From Bacteroidota bacterium (GTDB lineage: Bacteria > Bacteroidota > Bacteroidia > AKYH767-A > 2013-40CM-41-45), in the NCBI GenBank assembly GCA_031367345.1, contig JANLPR010000118.1, positions 121,591 through 185,590 of the forward strand: DNA of 64,000 bases, read 5' to 3'. Of this stretch, positions 38,492 to 52,939 are shown piece by piece; position 1 is the first letter of the stretch, and each line of letters begins with the position of its first letter. The notes under the pieces were generated by a model. That model was not told where the DNA came from. It made no database searches and saw nothing but the letters and a program-made list of their open reading frames with translations. The translations under genes were made by a program, and so were the position numbers.

Positions 38492-39904
38492 ATGACAAAA
38501 ATTAAATTTGGAACCGATGGATGGCGAGCAATAATTGCTGAAGAATTTACAGTTGAAAATGTAGCAAGAGTCGCAGAAGCTACTGCACTATGGTTGAAAA
38601 AAAACTACAAGGAGCCAAGTGTATGCTTGGGACATGATTGCCGTTTTGCCGGGGAGCTTTTTACTGATACAGTAGCTAAAGTATTATGTGCACATGGCAT
38701 CAAGACATTTTTAGCAAAAGGTTTTGTTTCGACACCAATGATTTCATTAGGAACATTAGAACTTAAATCAAGTGCCGGAATAATAATAACAGCATCTCAT
38801 AATCCACCATCATACAATGGGTTCAAATTAAAAGGCAGTTTTGGAGGCCCTATGTCACCTTCGAATGTGCAAGAAATTGAAGATATCATTCCTCAGAAGA
38901 GTTCAACAGACTTAAAGGGCATAACGATTGATGAGCTCATAAAAAATGGAAAAATAATCATCGTTGATCTAGAAGGGGAATATATCAAAAAGGTGGAAGC
39001 GAATTTTGATTTGGATGCAATTAAAAAGTCAGGGCTAAATCTCGCTTATGATGCAATGTATGGTTCAGGACAAAATGTAATAAAAAAATTATTTCCGGAA
39101 ATTACTATGTTGCATTGCGACTATAATCCGGGATTTCATGGGCAAGCTCCGGAGCCTATCCATAAAAACCTCATCGAATTTTCCAACCTAATTAAAGATA
39201 AAGGAAACATCGATTGCGGATTAGTGACTGATGGTGATGCGGATCGAATTGGAATGTATGACAACAAAGGAAATTTTATTGATTCACATCATATCATTCT
39301 TCTACTAATCCATTACATGGTAAAGTATAAAGGAATAAAAGGAAAAGTGTGTACTGCATTTAGTACAACACCTAAAGTTGAAAAACTTTGTAAACATTAT
39401 GGTCTTCCAATAGAAACTGTGAAAATCGGTTTCAAATATATTTGTGAGATCATGTTAAAAGAAGATGTTTTAGTTGGAGGAGAAGAAAGCGGAGGGATAG
39501 CAATTAAAGGACATATACCTGAGAGAGACGGAATTTGGATAGGTCTTATCATTTGGGAATTTATGGCCAAGAGTGGTAAAAAAATTCCGGAACTTTTTGA
39601 AGAGATTTATGAAATAGTTGGTGCTTTTGCATTTGAGCGAAGTGATTTACATTTAAAGGAAGAAGTTAAACTTAAGGTTGTAAAAAATACCGCAGATAAT
39701 TTCTACAAAAGTTTTGGAAAATATAAAGTAAAACGTATTGAAGATCTGGATGGTTATAAATATTTCTTCGACGACAATAACGATGAATGGCTATTAATAC
39801 GAGCTTCGGGTACAGAACCTGTTTTGAGAACCTATGCAGAATCATTTACAAAACAAGGAGCATTTGAAATTTTGAAAGCAGCAGAAGACACATTGTTAAG
39901 TTAA
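38492..39904 (+). CDS. phosphohexose mutase (phosphoglucomutase/phosphomannomutase/GlmM family)
   Basis: Active-site phosphoserine motif TASHNPPSYNGFK, metal-binding DGDADR, sugar-binding GEESGG. Confidence 0.75.
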   Translation: MTKIKFGTDGWRAIIAEEFTVENVARVAEATALWLKKNYKEPSVCLGHDCRFAGELFTDTVAKVLCAHGIKTFLAKGFVSTPMISLGTLELKSSAGIIITASHNPPSYNGFKLKGSFGGPMSPSNVQEIEDIIPQKSSTDLKGITIDELIKNGKIIIVDLEGEYIKKVEANFDLDAIKKSGLNLAYDAMYGSGQNVIKKLFPEITMLHCDYNPGFHGQAPEPIHKNLIEFSNLIKDKGNIDCGLVTDGDADRIGMYDNKGNFIDSHHIILLLIHYMVKYKGIKGKVCTAFSTTPKVEKLCKHYGLPIETVKIGFKYICEIMLKEDVLVGGEESGGIAIKGHIPERDGIWIGLIIWEFMAKSGKKIPELFEEIYEIVGAFAFERSDLHLKEEVKLKVVKNTADNFYKSFGKYKVKRIEDLDGYKYFFDDNNDEWLLIRASGTEPVLRTYAESFTKQGAFEILKAAEDTLLS

Positions 39905-40678: not shown

Positions 40679-42928
40679 TCATTGCTTAATAAATGGAAAA
40701 CTTTTTCGAGTACCATCATCGAAAATTGTTTCAAGAATCAAGTATGAAGGCGAAACTCCTGTGAGATCAATTGTAGTTAGCAATTGTGCGCCTATTTCTT
40801 TAATAATTTTTTCGCCAATTGAATTATAAACAGTTATTGAATTTATTTTTCTTTTTCCATTATTATAGACTCTCACTTGGTCTTTTGCAGGATTTGGAAA
40901 AAGATAAATTCCTTCAATTGCATGATCTAATGAAATGACTTCATCTACTGTTAAATAAATTGAATCGGAAGTAGAACTACAGTTAAATTGATTGGTAACA
41001 TCTACAGAATAGAATCCATCGTTTAAAGCAGTAAAAATTTGCAAGTTATTTCCAGGCAATGCAACTGAATTAAAATTCCATTGATAAGAATTCGCGTAAC
41101 TTGATGTTAGAGTATTTCCGTTAACAGTAATTATTGGTGCAGAAGGATTAGGATGAACTACTATACAGTTAACGCGCATCAAAGTTTGAGTACCATGAGA
41201 GTTGATAGCTGTTAATAGAACGGAATATGTACCTGCAGTTGAATAAGTGACAATGGGATTTTGATCTGAAGAAGTAGCAGGAAAACCTCCCGGAAATGTC
41301 CACGACCATGATGTTGCATTCGTAGAATGATCATTGAATTGTACCGAAGAGTTTGCACACACTTGCGAATTGCTAAAGTTGAAACTTACGTTTGGAATAT
41401 AACAATCGTTGACAACCAACGTCACAGAAGTTGTACTTATACTGGTACACGTTTGTGCTGTTAATTGAATTGTATTTGAACCAATAGTTGCGGGAATAAA
41501 TTGGAAAATTGAATCATGCGAAGATGTGCTTTGAATATTCCAAATCTGATCAGAATTGTTGGTCGCTAAGCTTACCAATGAAATTGTATCGCCCAAACAA
41601 AATGAATTTCCAATTGGAGCAATCACTGCGTGAGGAGCTCTGCAATTTAATTCAGCCATCCAAATATCACTATTCCCATGATTGTTAGATACCATGAAAT
41701 TATTACTGTATGAATAGCCAACAAACAAATACTGTCCTGTATTTAATTCTATGATACTTGCAGGTCTATCATTAATTCCACCACCATAACTTTTCTTCCA
41801 TTCAATATTGAAACTACCATCAGTCTTCAAGATCCAAATATCTTCACCCCCAAAATTTGATGCAACATCAAAGTCATTCGATGTTGAACCGCATGCAAGC
41901 AAATACCCTCCGTCAGTCGATTGTTTAATATCGAATACATTTTCCGATTGTGTGCCTCCAAATTGTTTTGAGCGTAGAATTGCACCTAAGCTGTCAACTT
42001 CCAGTATCCAGCAATCTGTACCACCAATGTTCATTGATAGGTCATGATTATTTGATCTGGAATATCCACCAATAATTATATTCTGACTATTATTAATAAT
42101 CATCGTTGTTGATGCATCATAAGATGAACCGCCAAATGTTCGGCTGAAAATCAAATTCCCGGATGAATTAAATTTTAAAAGCAGCCAATCATAGTTCCCA
42201 TAATTAGTAGTGATGTCTCCATCGGTAGAATTAGTTGTTCCACTGCAATAAATATTCCCTTGACTATCTTCCGCAATAGAATACAAGACATCAAGGTCTG
42301 TACCACCAAAGCTGTAACTCCAAACTAAATTCCCCGATACATCAATTTTAAATACCCAAGCATCTTCGTTTCCTTTATTTAATGGTAGATCATTATCAAA
42401 CGAAAAAGATCCACCAGAGACAAGAAATCCTCCGTTAGCTGAATTGCAAATTGAATATGCTAAATCACTTCGAGAACCTCCAAAAGTTCTTTGCCATTGT
42501 ATAGTTCCTAAAGTATCAACACAAACTACCCATGCATCAAAGCCACCTCTGTTGTAAGTTACATCACCATTAGAAGAGCTGGTATATCCTGCAATTATAA
42601 ATTTACCATTACATTCAACAATAGCAGTTGCATCATCAATTCCCGATCCGCCAAAAGAAAATTGGCAGATCAATCTTCCTGAAATATCGTATTTGGCTAA
42701 CCATATATCTGTTGAACCATGATTCGTAGAAATATCTCCATTATTAGAATCAGTATTTCCTAACAACCAGACTTGACCTGTAGACGATTTAATAATCTGT
42801 GAACCAAAATCAGAATTAGTGCCTCCAATACTTTTTGTCCATTCAATAATTGGTGGTGTTGCTGCAATAAGTATCGGATTAGTGATCAGAATGGTTAGAA
42901 AAAGTAATAAAATTGATTTTTTTTGCAT
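40679..42928 (-). CDS. secreted beta-propeller (SBBP-repeat) + PKD-domain protein with T9SS C-terminal sorting domain
   Basis: Signal peptide. ~7 repeats of the F/YGG.. D/S...I SBBP-like blade motif. PKD-like domain (VSFNFSNSQVCANSSVQFND...GTYSVLLTAINSHG). C-terminal FPNPAKDQVRV...ITVYNSIGEKI type-A T9SS CTD. Confidence 0.7.
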   Translation of the reverse strand: MQKKSILLLFLTILITNPILIAATPPIIEWTKSIGGTNSDFGSQIIKSSTGQVWLLGNTDSNNGDISTNHGSTDIWLAKYDISGRLICQFSFGGSGIDDATAIVECNGKFIIAGYTSSSNGDVTYNRGGFDAWVVCVDTLGTIQWQRTFGGSRSDLAYSICNSANGGFLVSGGSFSFDNDLPLNKGNEDAWVFKIDVSGNLVWSYSFGGTDLDVLYSIAEDSQGNIYCSGTTNSTDGDITTNYGNYDWLLLKFNSSGNLIFSRTFGGSSYDASTTMIINNSQNIIIGGYSRSNNHDLSMNIGGTDCWILEVDSLGAILRSKQFGGTQSENVFDIKQSTDGGYLLACGSTSNDFDVASNFGGEDIWILKTDGSFNIEWKKSYGGGINDRPASIIELNTGQYLFVGYSYSNNFMVSNNHGNSDIWMAELNCRAPHAVIAPIGNSFCLGDTISLVSLATNNSDQIWNIQSTSSHDSIFQFIPATIGSNTIQLTAQTCTSISTTSVTLVVNDCYIPNVSFNFSNSQVCANSSVQFNDHSTNATSWSWTFPGGFPATSSDQNPIVTYSTAGTYSVLLTAINSHGTQTLMRVNCIVVHPNPSAPIITVNGNTLTSSYANSYQWNFNSVALPGNNLQIFTALNDGFYSVDVTNQFNCSSTSDSIYLTVDEVISLDHAIEGIYLFPNPAKDQVRVYNNGKRKINSITVYNSIGEKIIKEIGAQLLTTIDLTGVSPSYLILETIFDDGTRKSFPFIKQ

Positions 42929-43218
42929 TTGCTTTCAATTCCGGGGGAGGCACAAATGCAAGATGGCTTCGTTTCTAAAAAGGAACAATTTTATTGGGTA
43001 AACTGCTTAGAAACAAGGGCTAAATGGGTTATAAATGTTATCAGTGAATCGTCATAAAAAAGCACTCTTTTATGGTTAAAAACCAGATTTTAGCGACAAC
43101 TGATTCGTTTTCTTACACAAGCAAGAAAGCAGTCAAAAGATAGTGATCTAAAATAAGAATAGGGGCGTAATAGGACTCAGTTATCGCATTTGAATTTATT
43201 CACCTGATAACAAGATTA

Positions 43219-43308
43219 TCAATCCCGTAAGATTGAAATATCAAAGAAGTCAACCCCGTAAGGTTGAAAAAAATACCCAGCCCCGTAAGGCTGGGTTTCT
43301 TTTTTTTA
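43219..43308. repeat. array of three tandem stem-loops with identical CCGTAA loop and co-varying stems; the last is followed by a T-run (terminator for the 43325..43849 gene)
   Basis: TCAATC-CCGTAA-GATTGA (43219..43236), TCAACC-CCGTAA-GGTTGA (43250..43267), ACCCAGCC-CCGTAA-GGCTGGGT (43275..43296), then TTTCTTTTTTTT. Confidence 0.6.
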
Positions 43309-43324
43309 GGCTTAATCTATCTTT

Positions 43325-43849
43325 TTATGCTATACTCTTTAATCGAACCGAAATAAACAATCTGTATACTCCAAAAATTAATGCAGTATAGAACAAGTCA
43401 CCGGCAATTTGATTCCCAAAAAACGGTATGGCCATGGTATAGCTTTGTAATGTACCTTCCAAATTCATTGGGTATAATTGGATATCATAATACCAAAAAG
43501 GAAGATTCGTGATAAGGAAAAAAACCAGAGAACTAATTAGAGAACTAGCAGCTAATCTAAGTATGTTCTGGTCAGAAGAGGATTTCATTCCAAGCCAAAC
43601 AGTAAATCCGATACAAGCATAAACAGCAGCCATTGAAAAATGAAAACCAAGTACTATATCGGTTAAGAACATTGCAATAAACGGCAATAGAAGAGCAAAC
43701 GTTTTATTCTTAAAATTGGCTCCGGAAAATAATGCCATAGCACCGATTGCTGTAAAATTAAATGGGTGCGGAAATAATCGGGTACTTGCTGCAATGAAAA
43801 TTAAAAAAGCTGCAGGTAACAGCATTGGCTTAATTGACGAGTTCTTCAT
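43325..43849 (-). CDS. small polytopic membrane protein (5 TM), unknown function; possibly an ECF-transporter S-component-like/DUF6580-like fold
   Basis: 174 aa, five hydrophobic helices, no soluble domain. Confidence 0.45.
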   Translation of the reverse strand: MKNSSIKPMLLPAAFLIFIAASTRLFPHPFNFTAIGAMALFSGANFKNKTFALLLPFIAMFLTDIVLGFHFSMAAVYACIGFTVWLGMKSSSDQNILRLAASSLISSLVFFLITNLPFWYYDIQLYPMNLEGTLQSYTMAIPFFGNQIAGDLFYTALIFGVYRLFISVRLKSIA

Positions 43850-43901
43850 TTATTGTTCTTTATATGGCAAAAATAAATAATTTCCCCTCATTAGGAAACT
43901 A

Positions 43902-45056
43902 TTAAGAAACTTTACTTTTGAAAGGATTCCTTTTTTGCCAAATTTCACCCATGCTTCTCTGAAATTTATTCCCCAACCAATCAAATGCAAAATTTGCTAG
44001 TTTGCTTTTTAATTTATAATAATCGTTAAAATAGACCGGCTTACAGCCCAAATTGGCTTTTGCTTCTCGAGCAGTTCTTCCTAGCTCTAATTCACTTTTA
44101 CGATTGAGGATGGCTAACTCCAAAGCATCAAAAAGTATATTGAAATATAAATTGTATTTTTTATTCATTTCATAATTAATACCAATATAGTGAACTTCTA
44201 ATTGTTCTCCATGATCTATATAAGTACTAAAGGCTATCATTTTAGAATTTAAATAATAAGCCACAAATTTAAATTCTTCTGGAAATGTTTTTTTGAACTC
44301 AGAGAAATAATTAGCATCAATCAATCCTAAACAAATAGTTTGTTTTTTACTCACGTTTTCAAATAAATCATAAATGAAATCCTTTGACTGTAAAATTTCT
44401 TCAAGCTTGAGAACTTTTCGCTCAATTTTTTCGGCACCAAACTTTATTTTTTCAGCACGGCGTCGATATTTTTTTGTCAATGAATTTAAATAATCATCCA
44501 TTGAATTCCAATCGCTAGGAAGCGATAAAGACATAGTGAGATCTTTTGAATAATTATGATAATTTATTTTTCTCAAATAACTTCCATGAATATCTTCTTG
44601 AACATCCTTAATCATAATTGCATCCACTTTTCTGAGATTAGCAATTACATCAATTAACGCAAGAATATCATCTGAATTCATCAAAAGTGGATCAAATGAA
44701 AAAGGAGGGAAGCTAACTGCAAATACATTCCCACACATTAAAAGTTTGAGTGGCCTGAAAAATAAAAATGTATCGACAAAAAGAGAAAGGAAAAAATTAT
44801 CAGGTAGGTGAATATTTTTACCGGTTATTGTCACTAATTGAAAATAAATAATTCCGCAAACCTTTCCATCCGAATTGCTGATAATAGCATAACGAAAACT
44901 GATATCTTTTGGATGAGCCTTTTCTAATAATCTTAAATAATCCTTTTCTAAAAAATAATCGCTAAAACCTACCCATCGATTAATACAATTTTCATCATAA
45001 ATTGAATCAAAAAGATCGACTGAAAAATTGTTATGTACAAAATGGTTTATTAGCAC
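43902..45056 (-). CDS. FemAB/CelD-like (Acetyltransf_6-type) GNAT-fold acyltransferase family protein, tentative
   Basis: 384 aa, two-lobed. C-terminal region HYIGINYEMNKKYNLYFNILFDALELAI...GRT resembles the BioF2/FemAB-like GNAT core. No signal peptide. Confidence 0.35.
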   Translation of the reverse strand: MLINHFVHNNFSVDLFDSIYDENCINRWVGFSDYFLEKDYLRLLEKAHPKDISFRYAIISNSDGKVCGIIYFQLVTITGKNIHLPDNFFLSLFVDTFLFFRPLKLLMCGNVFAVSFPPFSFDPLLMNSDDILALIDVIANLRKVDAIMIKDVQEDIHGSYLRKINYHNYSKDLTMSLSLPSDWNSMDDYLNSLTKKYRRRAEKIKFGAEKIERKVLKLEEILQSKDFIYDLFENVSKKQTICLGLIDANYFSEFKKTFPEEFKFVAYYLNSKMIAFSTYIDHGEQLEVHYIGINYEMNKKYNLYFNILFDALELAILNRKSELELGRTAREAKANLGCKPVYFNDYYKLKSKLANFAFDWLGNKFQRSMGEIWQKRNPFKSKVS

Positions 45057-45097: not shown

Positions 45098-48000
45098 TTA
45101 ATTAATAAAAAAACGTTTCGAAATTGATTTACCAAATATGTCAATTTTTAACAAATATATTCCACTTGAAAGACCTACCAATCTAGTTTGAATATTATTT
45201 TCACCTTTTTCTAAAACGAATTCATCACTAAGTATCTCCTTACCTTCAATGGTATAGATGACGATTCTGGCATTTATATATCCTAAAGAGTTCAAAATAA
45301 TTTTAGGAGCTAAGCCATCATTCGTTGAATTTATTTGAATAATTTCGGAACGACAAGAATGAACAGCAATCACCGGATAAACTTTGAAGTTTCCATCAAA
45401 ATCAAATTGAGTCAATCTGTAATAGTTGATTTGACTCATACTTTCTTTGTCAACAAATGAATAATTATTAAATGAAGATGCAGTACCGTGACCCTTTATA
45501 GAAGCTATGGTTGAAAATTCGAAACCATTAGTACTACTTTCTAAAAGAAAATAATCATTATTAGTTTCAGAAGCTGTTGTCCAATCAAGCGAAATTTCAT
45601 TCTCTTTACAAGCACCTTCAAAACGGATTAAGTCTATTGGCAGAGGTGTATTATTACCTGACAATGTCCACCAATTAGAAATGTCTGTGATACCTGAAGT
45701 TGAATTACCGCTAGCATTTGGAGTTTGAGTTCCGGGCGGAGGATTGGTCCATGATGTTACTTGAAGTATCCAACGTTGCGCTGTAAGTGAAGTAATGGTT
45801 CCAATTTCTGTTGGCGTTGCTTTAAAATTAAGACTTGCATTATAAATAGAACTACCAGTAACTTTCATCGACCAAAATCGATCAACTGTATTGGCGTTAT
45901 TATCCACGCCCGAATTATTTCGAATATGAGTAACAGAAGGAGGCAATGGCAAATTGCTGGCACCTGTATGATATGAACCAACATAGAAACCGGGAGCACT
46001 CCCTGAATTCAAAGTAAAAGTAAAAGGAATATATTCAGTAGAACTAAATCCAAAAGGAATAACATGTGCTCCTAGATTACTTCCAATATTCCACTTTAGA
46101 AGAGCGCTATTATCTTCTGTTTCGGATCTGATATAGCCTGATGATCGTTGAATGGAACTTGTTAGTCCGCTTTCAATTATTAATTTTCGACCACCTCCGT
46201 TTGAAGGATTATGATCATCATCTAAATTTAATTCACCATTGGTAAGAATCAACGCTGTTCTAATAGCTACCGATGAGTCATTCGGCAGATTGGTTAGAAA
46301 AGCAAAATTGATATTTGGAATGCCTTGAAAATTAATATCAAGATTCCCATACTTGTGATATGAAAATTGTGCTTTACCAATTCCAATACCGGTAACAATT
46401 TGATTTGACGTTCCATTGTACTCGATTGTTGAAGTAGATGCTAAATAATAATCGAGATTATCAGATATGTTTGTAGAAAAAGTTGCGTTTGTTGTACCAT
46501 TATACAAACCAAAAGTGTTAGCAGTTTTTATTCGACCAAGGACAGTTATTCCACTATTAGGTTTAAGTGCATTACTAAAAATTTTATTACTTCTAACATT
46601 CAATACACCGCCTGCGTTGACCCATAAAAACTCAGGAGGCGTAGATATACTATTGTTAGAGGCAATTTGCATATCGCCATTCACGATATCCAAAATACAA
46701 CCACTATTTATTGTTTGCTTAACTTGTTGAATAAGATGCGACCCGGACCGATCAAAATTAGTTGTTCCATTTCTTGCAAAATTTAAATAAGCATAAACAG
46801 TACTTATTCCGGGTTTAGTCATAGTGATCACACCTGTTCCGCCAAGAGTGTAGGTTGGCGACTTAACATTCATTATCAAATTCAATGCCGCCGGAGTAGT
46901 AAGGCAATTATCAAAAGTGAATATTCCACCTGTATGAATAAAATTCCCAACATTATCATCATTCGAATTAATGTTCAACGTAATGGTGGCAGATGGTGGC
47001 AGCTCATCGGTTAAAGTATTGTGCAAATAAAATTCACCATTGGTCAAACTAAAGCCCCCTAAAACATTCACGGTACTAGTAGTACAATCACCACCTTTTA
47101 AACTTAGACTTCCATTTGTGATTGTTATGCCACCGTTAATTGTGGCAAAAAGTGTCTGTGAATATGCCGAAAGATAGGTCGTACCACCATCGATATTAAT
47201 ATTACCTGAAACAAACAAAGAGATATTGTGTCCATTTGAGGTAAGAGAATTAACTTCACAATTAAAGCTGTTTGTACCGCCGGAAACTTGCATCGATCCA
47301 AGTGAAATGGATTCAGAACCCAATGATCTACTACTAATAAATGTACCATTAGCACCTGAAATATTCAAACTTCCTGTTATTGATAAGTTGAGCAGTAAAT
47401 TATTAATATCAAAACCGGTGCCTGTTAAACCGATAATATAAAATTCATCAGTTGCTGAAGTAAAATTAATAGAACAGTTTCCATTTACTGTCATAATCCC
47501 TGTACCTCCAGAGTTGTTCGTATTGTGGTATGCCGAAAAATATCCGCCTGAAAAGTCAATACTACCCAATGTAAAATTAAATATCCCGGGATTAGAATAA
47601 ACAGTATTCGAACAACCTTTAAAAACACCAGCCGATTTGGTTAATGCACCAGAGCAATTAAACGTAAAATTTCCTGAACCGGAAAGGATACCTGTAAATT
47701 GCCCACCGGATTGATTGAAAGCAGAAGTAATTAAAGTCAGATTTGATGAACCACTATCTACCAATGCAACACCTTGTCCGTATAGAAGCCCACTATTTAA
47801 GATATTAAAGTTAGGTGAGCTAACAATAGTAGTACCTCCGGCTTTGCTTGCTTTAAAAAAATCAGTCGACACCGACGAATTAAAAGTGAAAGCTGTTCCA
47901 ACTATTATTGAATCTATGCTTGCATTTGAAGAATATATTTGACCTGAAAATTTTCCACCTAAAAAAGAAATATTGCGACCAGTTTTAAGTGTGAAAGACC

Positions 48001-49357
48001 CCGATGTATAAGCCCCATTGATATTAGAATTTCCTATGCAATTAAAATCGCGAGTAATTGCAATTCGAATTTTGTTAATACTTGAATCGGCATATGCAAA
48101 ATACAAGGAAGACGTACCTGAAACATTAATATCATTATTGATTGTAAAAGTTCCAATACCTTTTGCTTGCAAGCCGGAGGAAGGTTGACCCAGCAAATAG
48201 TTGTTTAGTCCATTCAATATATTAAAATCGTTTGTGGTAAAATTACACGCTCCATTTCCGCCTTCTAAAAAACAGAATGATCCTGAACCTGTAGTATTAT
48301 TTAGTGTAGTATTACCGCTAACAATTATTTTGCAAGGCGCATCAGCTCTATTAACAAGAAATACCTTTCCACCTGTATAATCTATATTTCCAGTCACAGC
48401 AAGTCGAAAATCTCCTCCAAGAATGTAGTTGTTTCCATTAATACCATAGAAATCATTTGAAAAGGTCAGGTTCCCATTCACGTTCCATGTTAGGATTCCA
48501 ACACTCGTATCCATTACTACGGAAGCATTTCCATTGGCTTGGTTTGCTACACTGCAAGATCCCGTTGTTAAATTAAGATTTCGATTAGCACCACGCTGAA
48601 AAATTATCTTACCTGAATTATTAATAATTACATCTTGAAGAACAAGAGATGTAGTGTTTCCGGTACCATCATCCATTATGACAGTACCGGAACTAACAGT
48701 TAAGTTCCCTTTAATTCTTGCTGAAGTTGGCAAGGAGAAGTAACCATCTTGGTCCCAAATTCCTCCCGGAACACTTGCATCAAAAACAATATTTCCAAAA
48801 TTACTTGTGGCAACTCTTGAAGGATCACCTAAAGCAATAGATCCATTATACCATTTCTTTAATATCAATGTTGAAGTAGGAGAAAAATTTTCTAAACTGT
48901 TATAAAAAATGCTTTCATCAGCTAAAATATTTCGAATAGGATTATGAAAGTAAGAACCATTTCCAGCAAGAGTGAACGTTTTATTTGCAACATTGAAATG
49001 AATAATTCCCTTATTCACTAATTGACCGTTAGCATTGACTAATATATTTCCGGCAATCTGAAGATCAGAAATTAGATTTGAATTAATTTGCACAACACCA
49101 TTAATTGTTAGATCACTAATTTGTGGGGTGACCACATCTACGGTTAAAGTGCATCCTGCAGCCACAATAACAGTTTGGCCTGCAGTTGGAGGTGCGGGTG
49201 ACCAGATAATTGGTGAGGACCAATTTCCTGAAGAAATACAACTTACCTGTGCTTTTGATCCTAATGAAAAAAATAAAGTAAAGCAAAGACAGAGTAAATA
49301 ATTTTCTCGACCACGAAGAATATGAATTAATAGCTGTTTCAAATTGTAAATTATCAA
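45098..49357 (-). CDS. giant (1419 aa) secreted Asn/Gly/Ser/Thr-rich beta-helix-like surface protein with T9SS C-terminal sorting domain
   Basis: Signal peptide. ~1200 aa of low-complexity N/G/S/T-rich repeats typical of parallel beta-helix adhesins. C-terminal GIYLLKIDIFGKSISKRFFIN type-A CTD. Confidence 0.65.
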   Translation of the reverse strand: MIIYNLKQLLIHILRGRENYLLCLCFTLFFSLGSKAQVSCISSGNWSSPIIWSPAPPTAGQTVIVAAGCTLTVDVVTPQISDLTINGVVQINSNLISDLQIAGNILVNANGQLVNKGIIHFNVANKTFTLAGNGSYFHNPIRNILADESIFYNSLENFSPTSTLILKKWYNGSIALGDPSRVATSNFGNIVFDASVPGGIWDQDGYFSLPTSARIKGNLTVSSGTVIMDDGTGNTTSLVLQDVIINNSGKIIFQRGANRNLNLTTGSCSVANQANGNASVVMDTSVGILTWNVNGNLTFSNDFYGINGNNYILGGDFRLAVTGNIDYTGGKVFLVNRADAPCKIIVSGNTTLNNTTGSGSFCFLEGGNGACNFTTNDFNILNGLNNYLLGQPSSGLQAKGIGTFTINNDINVSGTSSLYFAYADSSINKIRIAITRDFNCIGNSNINGAYTSGSFTLKTGRNISFLGGKFSGQIYSSNASIDSIIVGTAFTFNSSVSTDFFKASKAGGTTIVSSPNFNILNSGLLYGQGVALVDSGSSNLTLITSAFNQSGGQFTGILSGSGNFTFNCSGALTKSAGVFKGCSNTVYSNPGIFNFTLGSIDFSGGYFSAYHNTNNSGGTGIMTVNGNCSINFTSATDEFYIIGLTGTGFDINNLLLNLSITGSLNISGANGTFISSRSLGSESISLGSMQVSGGTNSFNCEVNSLTSNGHNISLFVSGNINIDGGTTYLSAYSQTLFATINGGITITNGSLSLKGGDCTTSTVNVLGGFSLTNGEFYLHNTLTDELPPSATITLNINSNDDNVGNFIHTGGIFTFDNCLTTPAALNLIMNVKSPTYTLGGTGVITMTKPGISTVYAYLNFARNGTTNFDRSGSHLIQQVKQTINSGCILDIVNGDMQIASNNSISTPPEFLWVNAGGVLNVRSNKIFSNALKPNSGITVLGRIKTANTFGLYNGTTNATFSTNISDNLDYYLASTSTIEYNGTSNQIVTGIGIGKAQFSYHKYGNLDINFQGIPNINFAFLTNLPNDSSVAIRTALILTNGELNLDDDHNPSNGGGRKLIIESGLTSSIQRSSGYIRSETEDNSALLKWNIGSNLGAHVIPFGFSSTEYIPFTFTLNSGSAPGFYVGSYHTGASNLPLPPSVTHIRNNSGVDNNANTVDRFWSMKVTGSSIYNASLNFKATPTEIGTITSLTAQRWILQVTSWTNPPPGTQTPNASGNSTSGITDISNWWTLSGNNTPLPIDLIRFEGACKENEISLDWTTASETNNDYFLLESSTNGFEFSTIASIKGHGTASSFNNYSFVDKESMSQINYYRLTQFDFDGNFKVYPVIAVHSCRSEIIQINSTNDGLAPKIILNSLGYINARIVIYTIEGKEILSDEFVLEKGENNIQTRLVGLSSGIYLLKIDIFGKSISKRFFIN

Positions 49358-49543: not shown

Positions 49544-52500
49544 CTATGGGTTGGCCTTCGTAAAAGTAGTTTTTGTTTTATTTTCAATCCAAGAATAATC
49601 GGTCGACTCGATAATACCATCGCCATTAATATCACCTGGATAATAACCAACATAGTACCCGCTGCTTAAAGATGAATTTTCAACGTTAAAATCATTGAAA
49701 TTGATTGCTCCATCTTGATTTAGGTCACCAGTATGCAAAGCATAAACACCAGGTTCTACTAATATTTGATTACTTCCATACGCTTTAGTAGCACCAATTG
49801 TAAAATCGTAGAGTGTGTCAGGAGTATTAAAACCAAAAATTACCGAACTCCATACCTCAAGGCTGTTCCTATTTTTAATAGCTATATAGTAATTTTGACC
49901 TAATGCGGGTTGAGGAAACAAGATATTGGAATTACCGAATACACTTACCACTCCTTTAGAAGAATAATCAACTAGTTTTGTTACCGGATTAATCAAATTC
50001 ACAGTGATTGAATCAGCTAAAGTATCTGCGGGATTAAGCAATGCAACCATTTTATGAGTGCTGGCTAAATAAAGACCTTCTAAAAACACTTTTAGTTTCA
50101 GACTGTAATCCAAAGGTTCAGTGGCGAATGCATTGATATTACAGGTTTGTGAAATTCCTGCCACATTTACTCCAACCACAGACCAGTAATAGTTAGCACC
50201 TTGTTGCATGGTACCTGTAAGAGCAAAAGTATCGGTAGTATTTATTAGTACTTGTGTAGGAGGATTTACAAAATCCAAGTAAACACGATAGGTACTTATG
50301 TTAGGAATCTTTGACCATTTTAAAGTTGAACCTGTGTGAGGAATAAAAGAAGTTGCATTTTGGGGAATCATAGTGCTTGCACAAGTAGGAATAGATGTGG
50401 TGACGTTAATAGAAAAAAGCCCTGTACCACCACCAACTCCTGCATGATAAACACGAATGAAATATGTCTGCCCTACTGTAAGAGTTGATGCAGTCAATAC
50501 TTCTTGTTGACCATTTCCATAAGTATTTACACATTGAAGTGAATTCAACGAGCCACAGCTATTGGAGAATAGCTGTATAACCGCATTAAATCCATTTCCT
50601 GAATTGACAGTTATAATTTCAATTGGATATGTTGCCACGAAAGAATACCAAACATCATCGTCAGGAGTAGTGCCGCTAAGCGAACAAAGTGGAATCGAAG
50701 CTGAAGTAGTAGCAGCGATTGTTTGACTTCCCGTTGTAAATGCATTTGCGGTAGTTACAGGAAGTGAAATTGCACTAGAGCAATTGTCATTTATAGGAGG
50801 AACCGGTGTAGCACTAACACAAATAGCAAATTGACCGCTACCTGTCCCTGCGCCAACCTGATTATGGTAAATTCTCAGAAAATATTGCTGACCTAAAATT
50901 AAATTAGTGGAGTTTATATATTCCGTTAATCCACTACCTGATGAATCTTTGCATGCAACCAATACATTTGAAGAATTATATAATTCTACTGCAGGATCAT
51001 AGTTCCCACTGCCCATTACTTTTATAGTAGTATTCGAATTGGTGGCAGTAAATTCAAACCAGACATCATCGTCGGCATTTCCACCGGCACATGCCACAAG
51101 AGAAGGTGTAGCGGTAGCATTGACCGAAGAAAAATAAGATCCACAAAGATCTGTGCATGGAGAGCTCCCCACGTCAAGATGTTGTGGTGATGACCGAAGG
51201 TCGTTGCTAGGTATTATGGTCGTTGCAACATATGATAGGTATGAACCTGGAGATAATTTTAAAGACGTAGCACAAGTAGGAGGATCAGTTAGATTAGAAA
51301 TTCCCGGTGTACCAAAGTTTCTCGTGTTGGCGGTTAATTGATTAAAATATTCTCCAGCTAATGGAGTAGCGCTTACATTTACTCCATTTATACCAATCGT
51401 ATACGAATACACATAATTAATGGTGCCATTAAATGGTTCCATACTTCCATAAACGTTTTCTATTTCAGAAGTAGCTTCATACAATTTTAGCTGAAAATTA
51501 AAATTGGGACCAGCATTATTATAAATTTCCATTCCCAACCATTCTATAATAAAAATTCTACTCCCTGTAACACCAGAAACTGTATATCTGATTGATGCAT
51601 CCAAATTTGATTGCAGTCCTGCATTTCCTTGACAAACTAAGTCTTCATAGAACGGTGCAATGATTAATGGCCCGGCGTTCATAGTAAGTGAATTAGTATA
51701 ACTATAAGCACCACTTCCATTTCCAGTAAGAGCAGTTGTTGTATTAAAAGTTATAAACCCATTAGTAGAAACTAAAAAAGAAGAATATGTTTTACCTTGA
51801 TAATTAAAATTAAATCCAATTGGTTGTGAAACACTTAAATTATCATCTGTGTTTGTTCCATTCTTCCAACCAGTAACAACTGTTCCGGTTGACAAAATAG
51901 AAGAATAGCTGATACCAGTATTCCTAACAACATTATAGTTGATGCTAGGAGCAGTCGTAAATGAATTTATTGAACACCCACTTGCCGATCCTGTAGCGTT
52001 CTTAGGTACCACTTTGTAATAATATACTGTATTAAAACCAAGAGTAGAAGTAGGGGTATAGGTTGTACTAACTTGCGATGTAGATACCAACGGCGGGTTT
52101 GAAGAGGTTCCAAAATATACATCATAAGATGTTGGGTTTCCTGTTCCTGCAGTCCAGCTTAGCGCAGTTGCACTTGAAATTCCGGTTGAACCAGCAACAG
52201 GAATTGACGCGCTTACACATGATGGAGGAAGCAATGGAGGAGTAAATGTATAAGACACGCCACTAGTGATAGCAGCAGTATTACTATTGTTTGAAGTAGC
52301 ACTCGAAAACGAAGCAGTAGATGCAGATGGTGTCACACTCCAAAAATCAGTTGTAGATGTAGCCAAACCGACTGAATATGCTCCAGCATTAACTATCAAT
52401 CCTGAATTGTAAACGAACTGAATTACATTTGTCGTTTCAAATAACCAAACTTGAAATTTTCCTGCGTTAGTTGTACTACTTTTAGGAACGTTTAAAATAA

Positions 52501-52939
52501 ATTCAACTGCTAATTTACGATTAGGTGATGTTCCAATTAATTTATAACCACAATAACCGGTAGTACCTGTTGTGAGATCATCCCAATAAGGTGCTATTTT
52601 AGGAAAGTCTGAATTGACAATTAAATTATTGACAGCATTGTTTGAAATTACTGTTGCTCCAAGTCTCATCAATCCATTTGAGTTAGTTGAGAATTGACTA
52701 TAGATAATATTATTGAAAGTAAAATTGAAACCAATATTTTGAACAGTACTTGCTACATCATCTTGACCGGTTAAAAACAAAGGAGTAAACCCGTTCATAT
52801 TTTCTAATACAGCACCAGTACTCACCGAAGTTGTATATAGATTAACTTGAGCTGAAGTACCAATAGAATTGAGTAAAAGAATTATACTATTCAAAAATAA
52901 AATTTTGAATAATTTAGATTCAAGTAATATTTTTTTCAT
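49544..52939 (-). CDS. large (1131 aa) secreted multi-domain surface protein: duplicated N-terminal beta-sandwich units, FN3-like domain, two PPC-like repeats, and a C-terminal dockerin-like double Ca-loop motif instead of a T9SS CTD
   Basis: Signal peptide. Repeated IGFNF...STNG units. FN3-like YDVYFGTSSNPP...YYYKVVPKN. Duplicated ~130-aa units containing DDDVW(F/Y)(E/S)F...Y(F)(L/I)R(I/V)YH. C-terminal GDLNQDGAINFNDF and GDINGDGIIESTDY. Confidence 0.6.
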   Translation of the reverse strand: MKKILLESKLFKILFLNSIILLLNSIGTSAQVNLYTTSVSTGAVLENMNGFTPLFLTGQDDVASTVQNIGFNFTFNNIIYSQFSTNSNGLMRLGATVISNNAVNNLIVNSDFPKIAPYWDDLTTGTTGYCGYKLIGTSPNRKLAVEFILNVPKSSTTNAGKFQVWLFETTNVIQFVYNSGLIVNAGAYSVGLATSTTDFWSVTPSASTASFSSATSNNSNTAAITSGVSYTFTPPLLPPSCVSASIPVAGSTGISSATALSWTAGTGNPTSYDVYFGTSSNPPLVSTSQVSTTYTPTSTLGFNTVYYYKVVPKNATGSASGCSINSFTTAPSINYNVVRNTGISYSSILSTGTVVTGWKNGTNTDDNLSVSQPIGFNFNYQGKTYSSFLVSTNGFITFNTTTALTGNGSGAYSYTNSLTMNAGPLIIAPFYEDLVCQGNAGLQSNLDASIRYTVSGVTGSRIFIIEWLGMEIYNNAGPNFNFQLKLYEATSEIENVYGSMEPFNGTINYVYSYTIGINGVNVSATPLAGEYFNQLTANTRNFGTPGISNLTDPPTCATSLKLSPGSYLSYVATTIIPSNDLRSSPQHLDVGSSPCTDLCGSYFSSVNATATPSLVACAGGNADDDVWFEFTATNSNTTIKVMGSGNYDPAVELYNSSNVLVACKDSSGSGLTEYINSTNLILGQQYFLRIYHNQVGAGTGSGQFAICVSATPVPPINDNCSSAISLPVTTANAFTTGSQTIAATTSASIPLCSLSGTTPDDDVWYSFVATYPIEIITVNSGNGFNAVIQLFSNSCGSLNSLQCVNTYGNGQQEVLTASTLTVGQTYFIRVYHAGVGGGTGLFSINVTTSIPTCASTMIPQNATSFIPHTGSTLKWSKIPNISTYRVYLDFVNPPTQVLINTTDTFALTGTMQQGANYYWSVVGVNVAGISQTCNINAFATEPLDYSLKLKVFLEGLYLASTHKMVALLNPADTLADSITVNLINPVTKLVDYSSKGVVSVFGNSNILFPQPALGQNYYIAIKNRNSLEVWSSVIFGFNTPDTLYDFTIGATKAYGSNQILVEPGVYALHTGDLNQDGAINFNDFNVENSSLSSGYYVGYYPGDINGDGIIESTDYSWIENKTKTTFTKANP

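Follow-up and report, generated by a model that had tools for sequence, protein, structure and literature searches.

In the 64,000-nt stretch of a Bacteroidota genome analyzed here (contig JANLPR010000118.1; hereafter, the window), two genes on the minus strand are flanked by genes for large proteins carrying type IX secretion system (T9SS) sorting domains. One of them, at 43902..45056 with a GTG start, encodes a 384-aa cytoplasmic transferase of the tandem GNAT (GCN5-related N-acetyltransferase), Fem-type fold, at the edge of the Pfam family FemAB_like (PF04339; COG3146). The other, at 43325..43849 with an ATG start, encodes a 174-aa membrane protein of the family DUF6580, which has the fold of the S-components of energy-coupling factor (ECF) transporters and is a candidate solitary importer of vitamin B12 or other cobamides, similar to BtuM and CbrT. 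A reading made from the sequence alone (hereafter, the sequence-only reading) had taken the two proteins for partners acting on the neighboring secreted proteins. Our analysis indicates that the two genes are independent and are adjacent through lineage-specific synteny, that DUF6580 is likely a solitary B12/cobamide importer and that the Fem-like protein is a cytoplasmic tandem GNAT, and we put the probability of this combined explanation at roughly 0.8.

Both open reading frames are present exactly as the sequence-only reading gave them. In comparison with the closest of our numbered loci (L001), the 174-aa gene has a ratio of nonsynonymous to synonymous substitution rates (dN/dS) of 0.03 and the 384-aa gene one of 0.08, with 0.03 also for the neighboring phosphoglucomutase gene; dS is about 1.3-1.4, which is near saturation. 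The low ratios therefore show both to be genuine genes under purifying selection. Over L001-L029 the Fem-like protein has changed far more rapidly than the proteins encoded syntenically beside it, with 35-53% identity as against 52-68% for DUF6580 and 74-86% for phosphoglucomutase (38492-39904).

DUF6580 and its vitamin B12 context

The 174-aa protein scores 160.2 bits against PF20221 (DUF6580; cut-off 27, E = 6.5e-47), residues 8-165 aligning with positions 5-155 of the 162 in the profile. Membrane helices run throughout the protein, so that its earlier description as a polytopic membrane protein holds, whereas the count of five transmembrane segments does not: the AlphaFold2 model (predicted local distance difference test score, pLDDT, 90.3) has six to seven helices. 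This model adopts the S-component fold. Its first structural match is BtuM, a solitary B12 transporter, and ECF S-components come next. One NCBI record labels a homologue 'DUF6580 family putative transport protein', and our literature search for DUF6580 or PF20221 returned no papers.

The genomic surroundings of DUF6580 point to vitamin B12. We examined 80 genome loci with a gene for a relative of the 384-aa protein; DUF6580 is present in 28, every one from the window's lineage. In 13 of these 28 a 735-aa TonB-dependent receptor, for which the top NCBIfam model is TonB-B12/BtuB, lies between the Fem-like gene and DUF6580, and in all seven such loci that were scanned (L014, L015, L019, L020, L023, L024 and L026) a full-length cobalamin riboswitch (RF00174, 103-114 bits) is found between the Fem stop codon and the receptor. 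Riboswitch and receptor together make up an insert of ~2.6 kb at the position of the 52-nt spacer that separates the two genes in the window (43850..43901, minus strand). Since the riboswitch and the BtuB-like receptor precede it, DUF6580 in this sister lineage takes second place in an uptake operon under B12 control, whose start lies downstream of the Fem-like gene. The complete unit starts right after the Fem stop codon and runs from the riboswitch through the receptor and DUF6580 to a triple-hairpin terminator.

Neither riboswitch nor receptor was found in seven of the loci closest to the window. Because the pairing of receptor and DUF6580 is widespread elsewhere, we infer that deletion is the likelier history: the window clade would have lost the ~2.6-kb segment, leaving DUF6580 52 nt behind the Fem-like gene. 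With riboswitch and receptor gone, the adjacency of the two genes would be an accident of synteny. In the window itself, Rfam searches (36-54 kb at E<=1, the whole 64 kb at gathering score) detected no riboswitch or other RNA, and the window copy of DUF6580 therefore lacks B12 regulation. Nothing relevant emerged from tblastn of BtuB-like, PduO, NrdJ, BtuF-like, DUF5074 and DUF4430 queries against the window. In other words, co-localization with btuB combined with B12 regulation, one of the marks of a BtuM-type transporter, is seen in the homologues and not in the window.

An independent sample gives the same picture. It comprises 80 loci from metagenomes, whose DUF6580 proteins show 37-60% identity, and 60 of these loci were scanned with Rfam. 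A B12-class riboswitch (RF00174, RF01482 or RF01689) is present in 22 of the 60, in 18 cases upstream and on the same strand; in some loci it is followed by DUF6580 with no gene between (L098, L148) or with DUF4430 only (L108, L119, L126). By way of control, 142 kb of Fem loci without DUF6580 contained no B12-class riboswitch. A TonB receptor gene lies directly upstream of DUF6580 in 22 of the 80 loci and a PduO adenosyltransferase gene directly downstream in 15. Further neighbors are DUF4430 (11), class II ribonucleotide reductase (9), a BtuF-like periplasmic binding protein (8) and DUF5074 (7). The 25 commonest Pfam families among the 150 genes within two positions of DUF6580 include none of ABC_tran, EcfT/CbiQ, FemAB_like and Por_Secre_tail; for an ECF module this search covered the local neighborhoods, that is, the 150 flanking genes rather than whole genomes.

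Two of the metagenome loci have tandem B12 riboswitches around a DUF4430/DUF6580/PduO block (L098, 4434-4563 and 6040-6108; L108, 4490-4562 and 6078-6152). The first riboswitch stands before DUF6580 (in L108, before the preceding DUF4430), and the second, of the AdoCbl-II type, stands after PduO and before the next gene. Immediately upstream of both blocks is a gene for class II ribonucleotide reductase.

Judging from fold and genomic context, the most likely function of DUF6580 is B12 transport. A BtuB-type outer-membrane receptor would deliver the cobamide to the periplasm, DUF6580, as a solitary S-component-like protein, would bind it and move it across the inner membrane, as BtuM does, and the PduO adenosyltransferase would then adenosylate it in the cytoplasm. 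The slot occupied by DUF6580, after BtuB-like receptors (22 + 13 loci) and before PduO (15 loci), is that of the inner-membrane uptake step, and neither ABC (ATP-binding cassette) nor EcfT genes are among its common neighbors. Both points argue against the idea that DUF6580 belongs to the B12 regulon without being an importer in its own right, for example as a corrinoid-processing or decyanating protein, as an ECF-dependent S-component or as a transporter of cobinamide or a lower-ligand precursor. Such a role is not without grounds: BtuM itself also decyanates B12 (PMC6072759), CbrT depends on an ECF module (PMC5997447), some DUF6580 loci additionally encode a BtuF-like binding protein, and the search for an ECF module covered only local neighborhoods. 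All in all, we consider these alternatives unlikely.

The Fem-like transferase

The 384-aa protein scores 32.5 bits against PF04339 (gathering cut-off 27; E = 6.7e-8), which makes it a marginal member of FemAB_like, and only its C-terminal lobe (residues 182-379) is aligned. Of its 43 relatives, 24 match PF04339 (E<=0.01) and six match Acetyltransf_6, while neither the protein nor any of the relatives matches PF02388 (FemAB). The AlphaFold2 model, built on these 43 relatives, is a two-lobed, tandem GNAT fold (pLDDT 92; predicted template modeling score, pTM, 0.88) with FemX as its top structural match, and the FemAB/GNAT-like fold put forward by the sequence-only reading is thus borne out. Neither a transmembrane segment nor a signal-like N-terminus was found in the protein. 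The motif by which GNATs bind CoA (motif A, Q/RxxGxG/A) is missing from it and occurs in two of 43 family sequences, at non-conserved positions. Searching the sequences of PDB chains with the single query and with a profile returned nothing significant. A full HMMER scan at E<=1e-3 collected 3187 cluster representatives; the listed ones are ~370-430 aa long unless truncated, and nearly all match in one stretch. The marginal, C-terminal-lobe-only alignment to PF04339, together with the matches of 24 of the 43 relatives, identifies the protein as a divergent Bacteroidota branch of COG3146/PF04339. Other members of this family (DUF482; Arabidopsis At2g23390 and Xanthomonas homologues) are likewise single-domain proteins of ~370-400 aa, annotated as 'predicted N-acyltransferase'.

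The most likely activity is a Fem-type transfer of an aminoacyl or, less likely, an acyl group to a cytoplasmic amine acceptor on a small molecule or envelope precursor. Our confidence in the donor type is low, somewhat below even, and the missing CoA-binding motif speaks only indirectly for aminoacyl-tRNA over acyl-CoA. The comparison with FemABX enzymes is a distant one. The aminoacyl-tRNA-dependent FemX of Weissella viridescens (PDB 4II9) shares 12% identity with the 384-aa protein, which, as noted, does not match PF02388, and there are no peptidoglycan-synthesis genes near its gene.

Another enzyme worth considering is VimA of the Wbp/Vim pathway of Porphyromonas gingivalis and Tannerella forsythia. 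VimA is a GNAT protein matching TIGR03019 that sets whether serine or glycine is placed on the T9SS linking sugar, and it is the published precedent for aminoacyl transfer to the sugar that anchors T9SS cargo (PMC7468200); the sequence-only reading was therefore incorrect in calling such an activity undescribed for T9SS cargo. One could imagine that the Fem-like enzyme, acting alone, is a lineage-specific replacement for VimA that aminoacylates a sugar-nucleotide or lipopolysaccharide precursor of the sortase linking sugar. Both proteins are of the GNAT superfamily and come from T9SS-bearing Bacteroidota, the fold of the 384-aa protein is of the Fem type, its carriers are Bacteroidota, many of its loci contain T9SS cargo genes, and TIGR03019 is its only NCBIfam match. 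However, that match is weak, at 16.6 bits against a cut-off of 260.35, and only two of the 43 relatives match the model at all, with a best E of 0.003. VimA is encoded together with vimE/vimF and wbp genes, whereas the 384-aa gene has no such neighbors: the 80 loci showed neither a CE4 deacetylase (VimE) nor glycosyltransferase or Wbp genes beside it. Moreover, the closest Pfam family, PF04339/COG3146, includes plant and proteobacterial members without a T9SS (PMC3223725). By sequence criteria the 384-aa protein is not a VimA orthologue, and we regard a VimA-like role as quite improbable.

Outside the window's lineage, the Fem-like gene keeps different company. At 49 such loci its 89 immediate neighbors include TerC (21), HSDR_N_2 (14), OmpA/PD40/TPR (6), redoxin (5), DivIC (5), threonine aldolase (4) and PKD (4). 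DUF6580 was not found beside Fem at these 49 loci, and the T9SS tail is absent from the common neighbor families there. The Fem-like protein was also considered as a candidate for the bacterial ceramide synthase; no Spt-like neighbor was seen.

In 21 loci (e.g. L030, 9148-11185; L036, L049, L052-L054, L058 and L072) the gene immediately upstream of Fem encodes a TerC-family membrane protein; it is read from the same strand, at a distance of -23 to +57 nt. The TerC-Fem pair occurs in at least four different outer contexts, with Fem identity among these loci going down to 44%, and the varied contexts therefore suggest a possible operon. A manganese (yybP-ykoY) riboswitch upstream of the pair was considered and rejected, as none was present in nine loci scanned. 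No TerC gene was found in the window by tblastn. Two unrelated observations concern the same collection of loci. One Fem locus (L030, 17970-18038, minus strand) contains a DUF805 RNA motif (RF03081, 83 bits), which has no bearing on the present finding. Several other loci are probably mislabeled: L037, L040 and L043 have Bacteroidota gene content under the titles 'uncultured Bifidobacteriaceae' or 'Bifidobacterium breve', and several more are titled as 'Chitinophaga pinensis' metagenome-assembled genomes (MAGs).

Cargo genes, hairpins and the adjacency of the two genes

The placement of the pair between T9SS cargo genes, as described by the sequence-only reading, is correct as gene order. Upstream, at 45098..49357 on the minus strand, is the gene for a 1419-aa protein with a Por_Secre_tail sorting domain (TIGR04183, 24.9 bits; cut-off 23) and a weak G8 domain. 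Downstream, at 40679..42928 on the minus strand, is the gene for a 749-aa protein with a CylK-like beta-propeller, a PKD domain and a C-terminal sorting domain (Por_Secre_tail, PF18962, 29.1 bits; cut-off 27). In both proteins the sorting domain is at threshold or slightly over. For a third large protein, of 1131 aa (49544-52939), Pfam and NCBIfam profile scans detected no T9SS sorting domain; a GBD_T9SS_assoc domain is present.

This arrangement underlies the proposal that the Fem-like enzyme works with the membrane protein as a two-component system for acylating, aminoacylating or anchoring the neighboring T9SS cargo. In its favor, all five genes of the region share one strand, the gaps on the two sides of the Fem-like gene are only 41 and 52 nt, and in the ~30 loci of the window's lineage this gene invariably follows one for a giant cargo protein. 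However, this lineage is syntenic throughout (cargo genes, Fem, DUF6580, cargo, AIM24, phosphoglucomutase and MltG), and because everything in the region travels together the association of cargo and Fem is not independent evidence. Elsewhere each of the two genes is kept in the absence of the other and of secreted-protein genes, which is what the sequence-only reading had named as grounds for giving up its own proposal. Neither DUF6580 nor T9SS-tail proteins are common neighbors of Fem outside the lineage, and DUF6580 in the metagenome loci has B12 neighbors, with a Fem homologue in just four of the 80, all four from the window's lineage. Even within that lineage, a riboswitch and a receptor part the supposed partners in the sister loci, and the fold and context of the membrane protein are those of a B12 transporter. 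The enzyme is cytoplasmic, whereas cargo modification takes place at the cell surface, and the downstream cargo gene lies behind a strong terminator. A cargo-modifying pair is therefore, in our view, extremely unlikely.

The signals around DUF6580 deserve a closer description. The 52-nt spacer contains TATTTTTG (43875-43868), 18 nt before the DUF6580 ATG, which matches the TAnnTTTG consensus of the Bacteroidetes -7 box; the signal is weak, and such matches often arise by chance in AT-rich DNA. A sigma-70 promoter scan gave 45 sites against 40 expected, which is chance level with a model ill-suited to Bacteroidota promoters. The terminator scan reported no terminator-like site in the spacer, and co-transcription of the Fem-like gene and DUF6580 in the window clade is therefore possible.

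On the other side of DUF6580, 28 nt past its stop codon, a strong hairpin is followed by a T-run (43296-43275), and two further hairpins come after it. This array (43219..43296, minus strand), delineated by terminator scan, motif count and RNAalifold, has a CTTACGGG core with a UACG tetraloop in each of its three hairpins (three matches against 0.47 expected). The array is kept 3' of DUF6580 in at least 24 loci (for example, at 11756-11861 in L001 and 14256-14361 in L014), some of them without the downstream 749-aa gene. RNAalifold gives three hairpins with 20 pairs, six of which show compensatory changes, and there is no Rfam match. In loop and stem sequences alike, conservation of the array greatly exceeds that of the intergenic DNA around it. 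From its sequence, the first hairpin with its T-run looks like an intrinsic terminator that ends the unit before the 749-aa gene.

The 749-aa gene is separated from DUF6580 by the array and ~400 nt, and it is missing from L002, L004 and L013, where DUF6580 and the hairpins are retained. The intergenic region at 42929-43324 (~400 nt; ~375-400 nt in L014 and others) contains no open reading frame or Rfam match beyond the hairpin array and is probably where the cargo gene has its promoter or leader. In its N-terminal half, the 749-aa protein resembles the beta-propeller of CylK (E = 3e-30), a cyanobacterial alkylating enzyme; the PKD domain and then the T9SS tail come after this half. We also considered this protein as a surface B12 binder like BtuG or BtuH, and rejected the idea in view of its CylK beta-propeller and PKD domain, the terminator between it and DUF6580, and its dispensability in some loci.

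Several observations weigh against the interpretation of independent genes and a B12 importer. The window has neither riboswitch nor btuB near DUF6580, and it is homologues at 37-68% identity that supply the link to B12. A distance of 52 nt separates the two genes in the window clade, where they share a strand and no terminator was reported between them, and a giant cargo gene stands directly upstream of the Fem-like gene in every locus of the lineage. The likeness of DUF6580 to BtuM is one of fold only: searches of PDB chains with the single sequence and two profiles gave no match to BtuM at E<=10. The sole PDB match of a broad DUF6580 profile (69 proteins) is a 182-aa chain of 6FNP, aligned over its full length at E = 0.17, which is not significant by itself. 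This chain is labeled 'Membrane protein', and we took it as CbrT from its length and the title of the entry (ECF-CbrT). Furthermore, the cobalt-ligating cysteine of BtuM (Cys80, in loop 3) lacks a conserved counterpart in DUF6580, as far as positions compared by sequence rather than structure can tell. Of 36 close relatives, 30 have C79, as do only 10 of the 69 broader ones, among which serine is commonest, and no cysteine is invariant. As to the transferase, PF04339/COG3146 has no established function, and a published pterin-related prediction for it was invalidated (PMC3223725); the literature on PF04339, DUF482 and COG3146 that we found consists of incidental mentions and this one prediction.

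A possible third family of small B12 importers

Because the cobalt-ligating cysteine is not conserved, the B12-binding chemistry of DUF6580 probably differs from that of BtuM. What is invariant in DUF6580 are R24, N31, D64, Y77, N115, W119 and Y126, with H28 found in 68 of the 69 proteins. In fold and size (about 20 kDa), DUF6580 resembles BtuM of Thiobacillus denitrificans (PDB 6FFV/8OVV), itself a solitary S-component-like B12 transporter. The homologues of BtuM are mostly proteobacterial (PMC6072759), whereas the DUF6580 proteins studied here come from Bacteroidota MAGs. CbrT, the S-component of ECF-CbrT from Lactobacillus delbrueckii (PDB 6FNP), has the same fold and the substrate that we infer for DUF6580, and the 6FNP chain shares with it the R..PN and LGF motifs within the alignment mentioned above. 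CbrT needs the EcfAA'T module (PMC5997447), and none was seen near DUF6580.

It is attractive to view DUF6580 as a third family of small S-component-type B12 importers, one that would work without an ECF module or the cysteine ligand of BtuM and would supply the missing uptake step in many environmental Bacteroidota. B12 would perhaps be bound via a cluster formed by the invariant R24, N31 and D64 and the near-invariant H28, and the conserved array of three UACG hairpins at the 3' end would be part of the gene's expression. We lean slightly toward this extended proposal.

The loci of DUF6580 homologues have much in common with the B12 loci of gut Bacteroides (BtuB with BtuG/BtuH, and BtuFCD). 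In both, a cobalamin riboswitch is followed by a BtuB-like receptor, and some DUF6580 loci also encode accessory DUF4430, DUF5074 and BtuF-like proteins. The difference lies in the inner-membrane step, which in DUF6580 loci would be carried out by a single S-component-like protein of 175 aa and not by the BtuCD ABC transporter. Only about half of the bacteria auxotrophic for B12 are predicted to have BtuCDF, and for most of the others no inner-membrane B12 transporter has been identified (PMC6072759).

Taken together, the proposed T9SS cargo-modifying pair is not supported, and no new secretion biology follows from it; the case illustrates how the loss of a riboswitch and a receptor can create a misleading gene pair. 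DUF6580, for its part, is a riboswitch-linked, BtuB-adjacent candidate with the BtuM fold for B12 uptake in uncultured Bacteroidota, and a Pfam family of unknown function thereby gains a well-supported and testable role.

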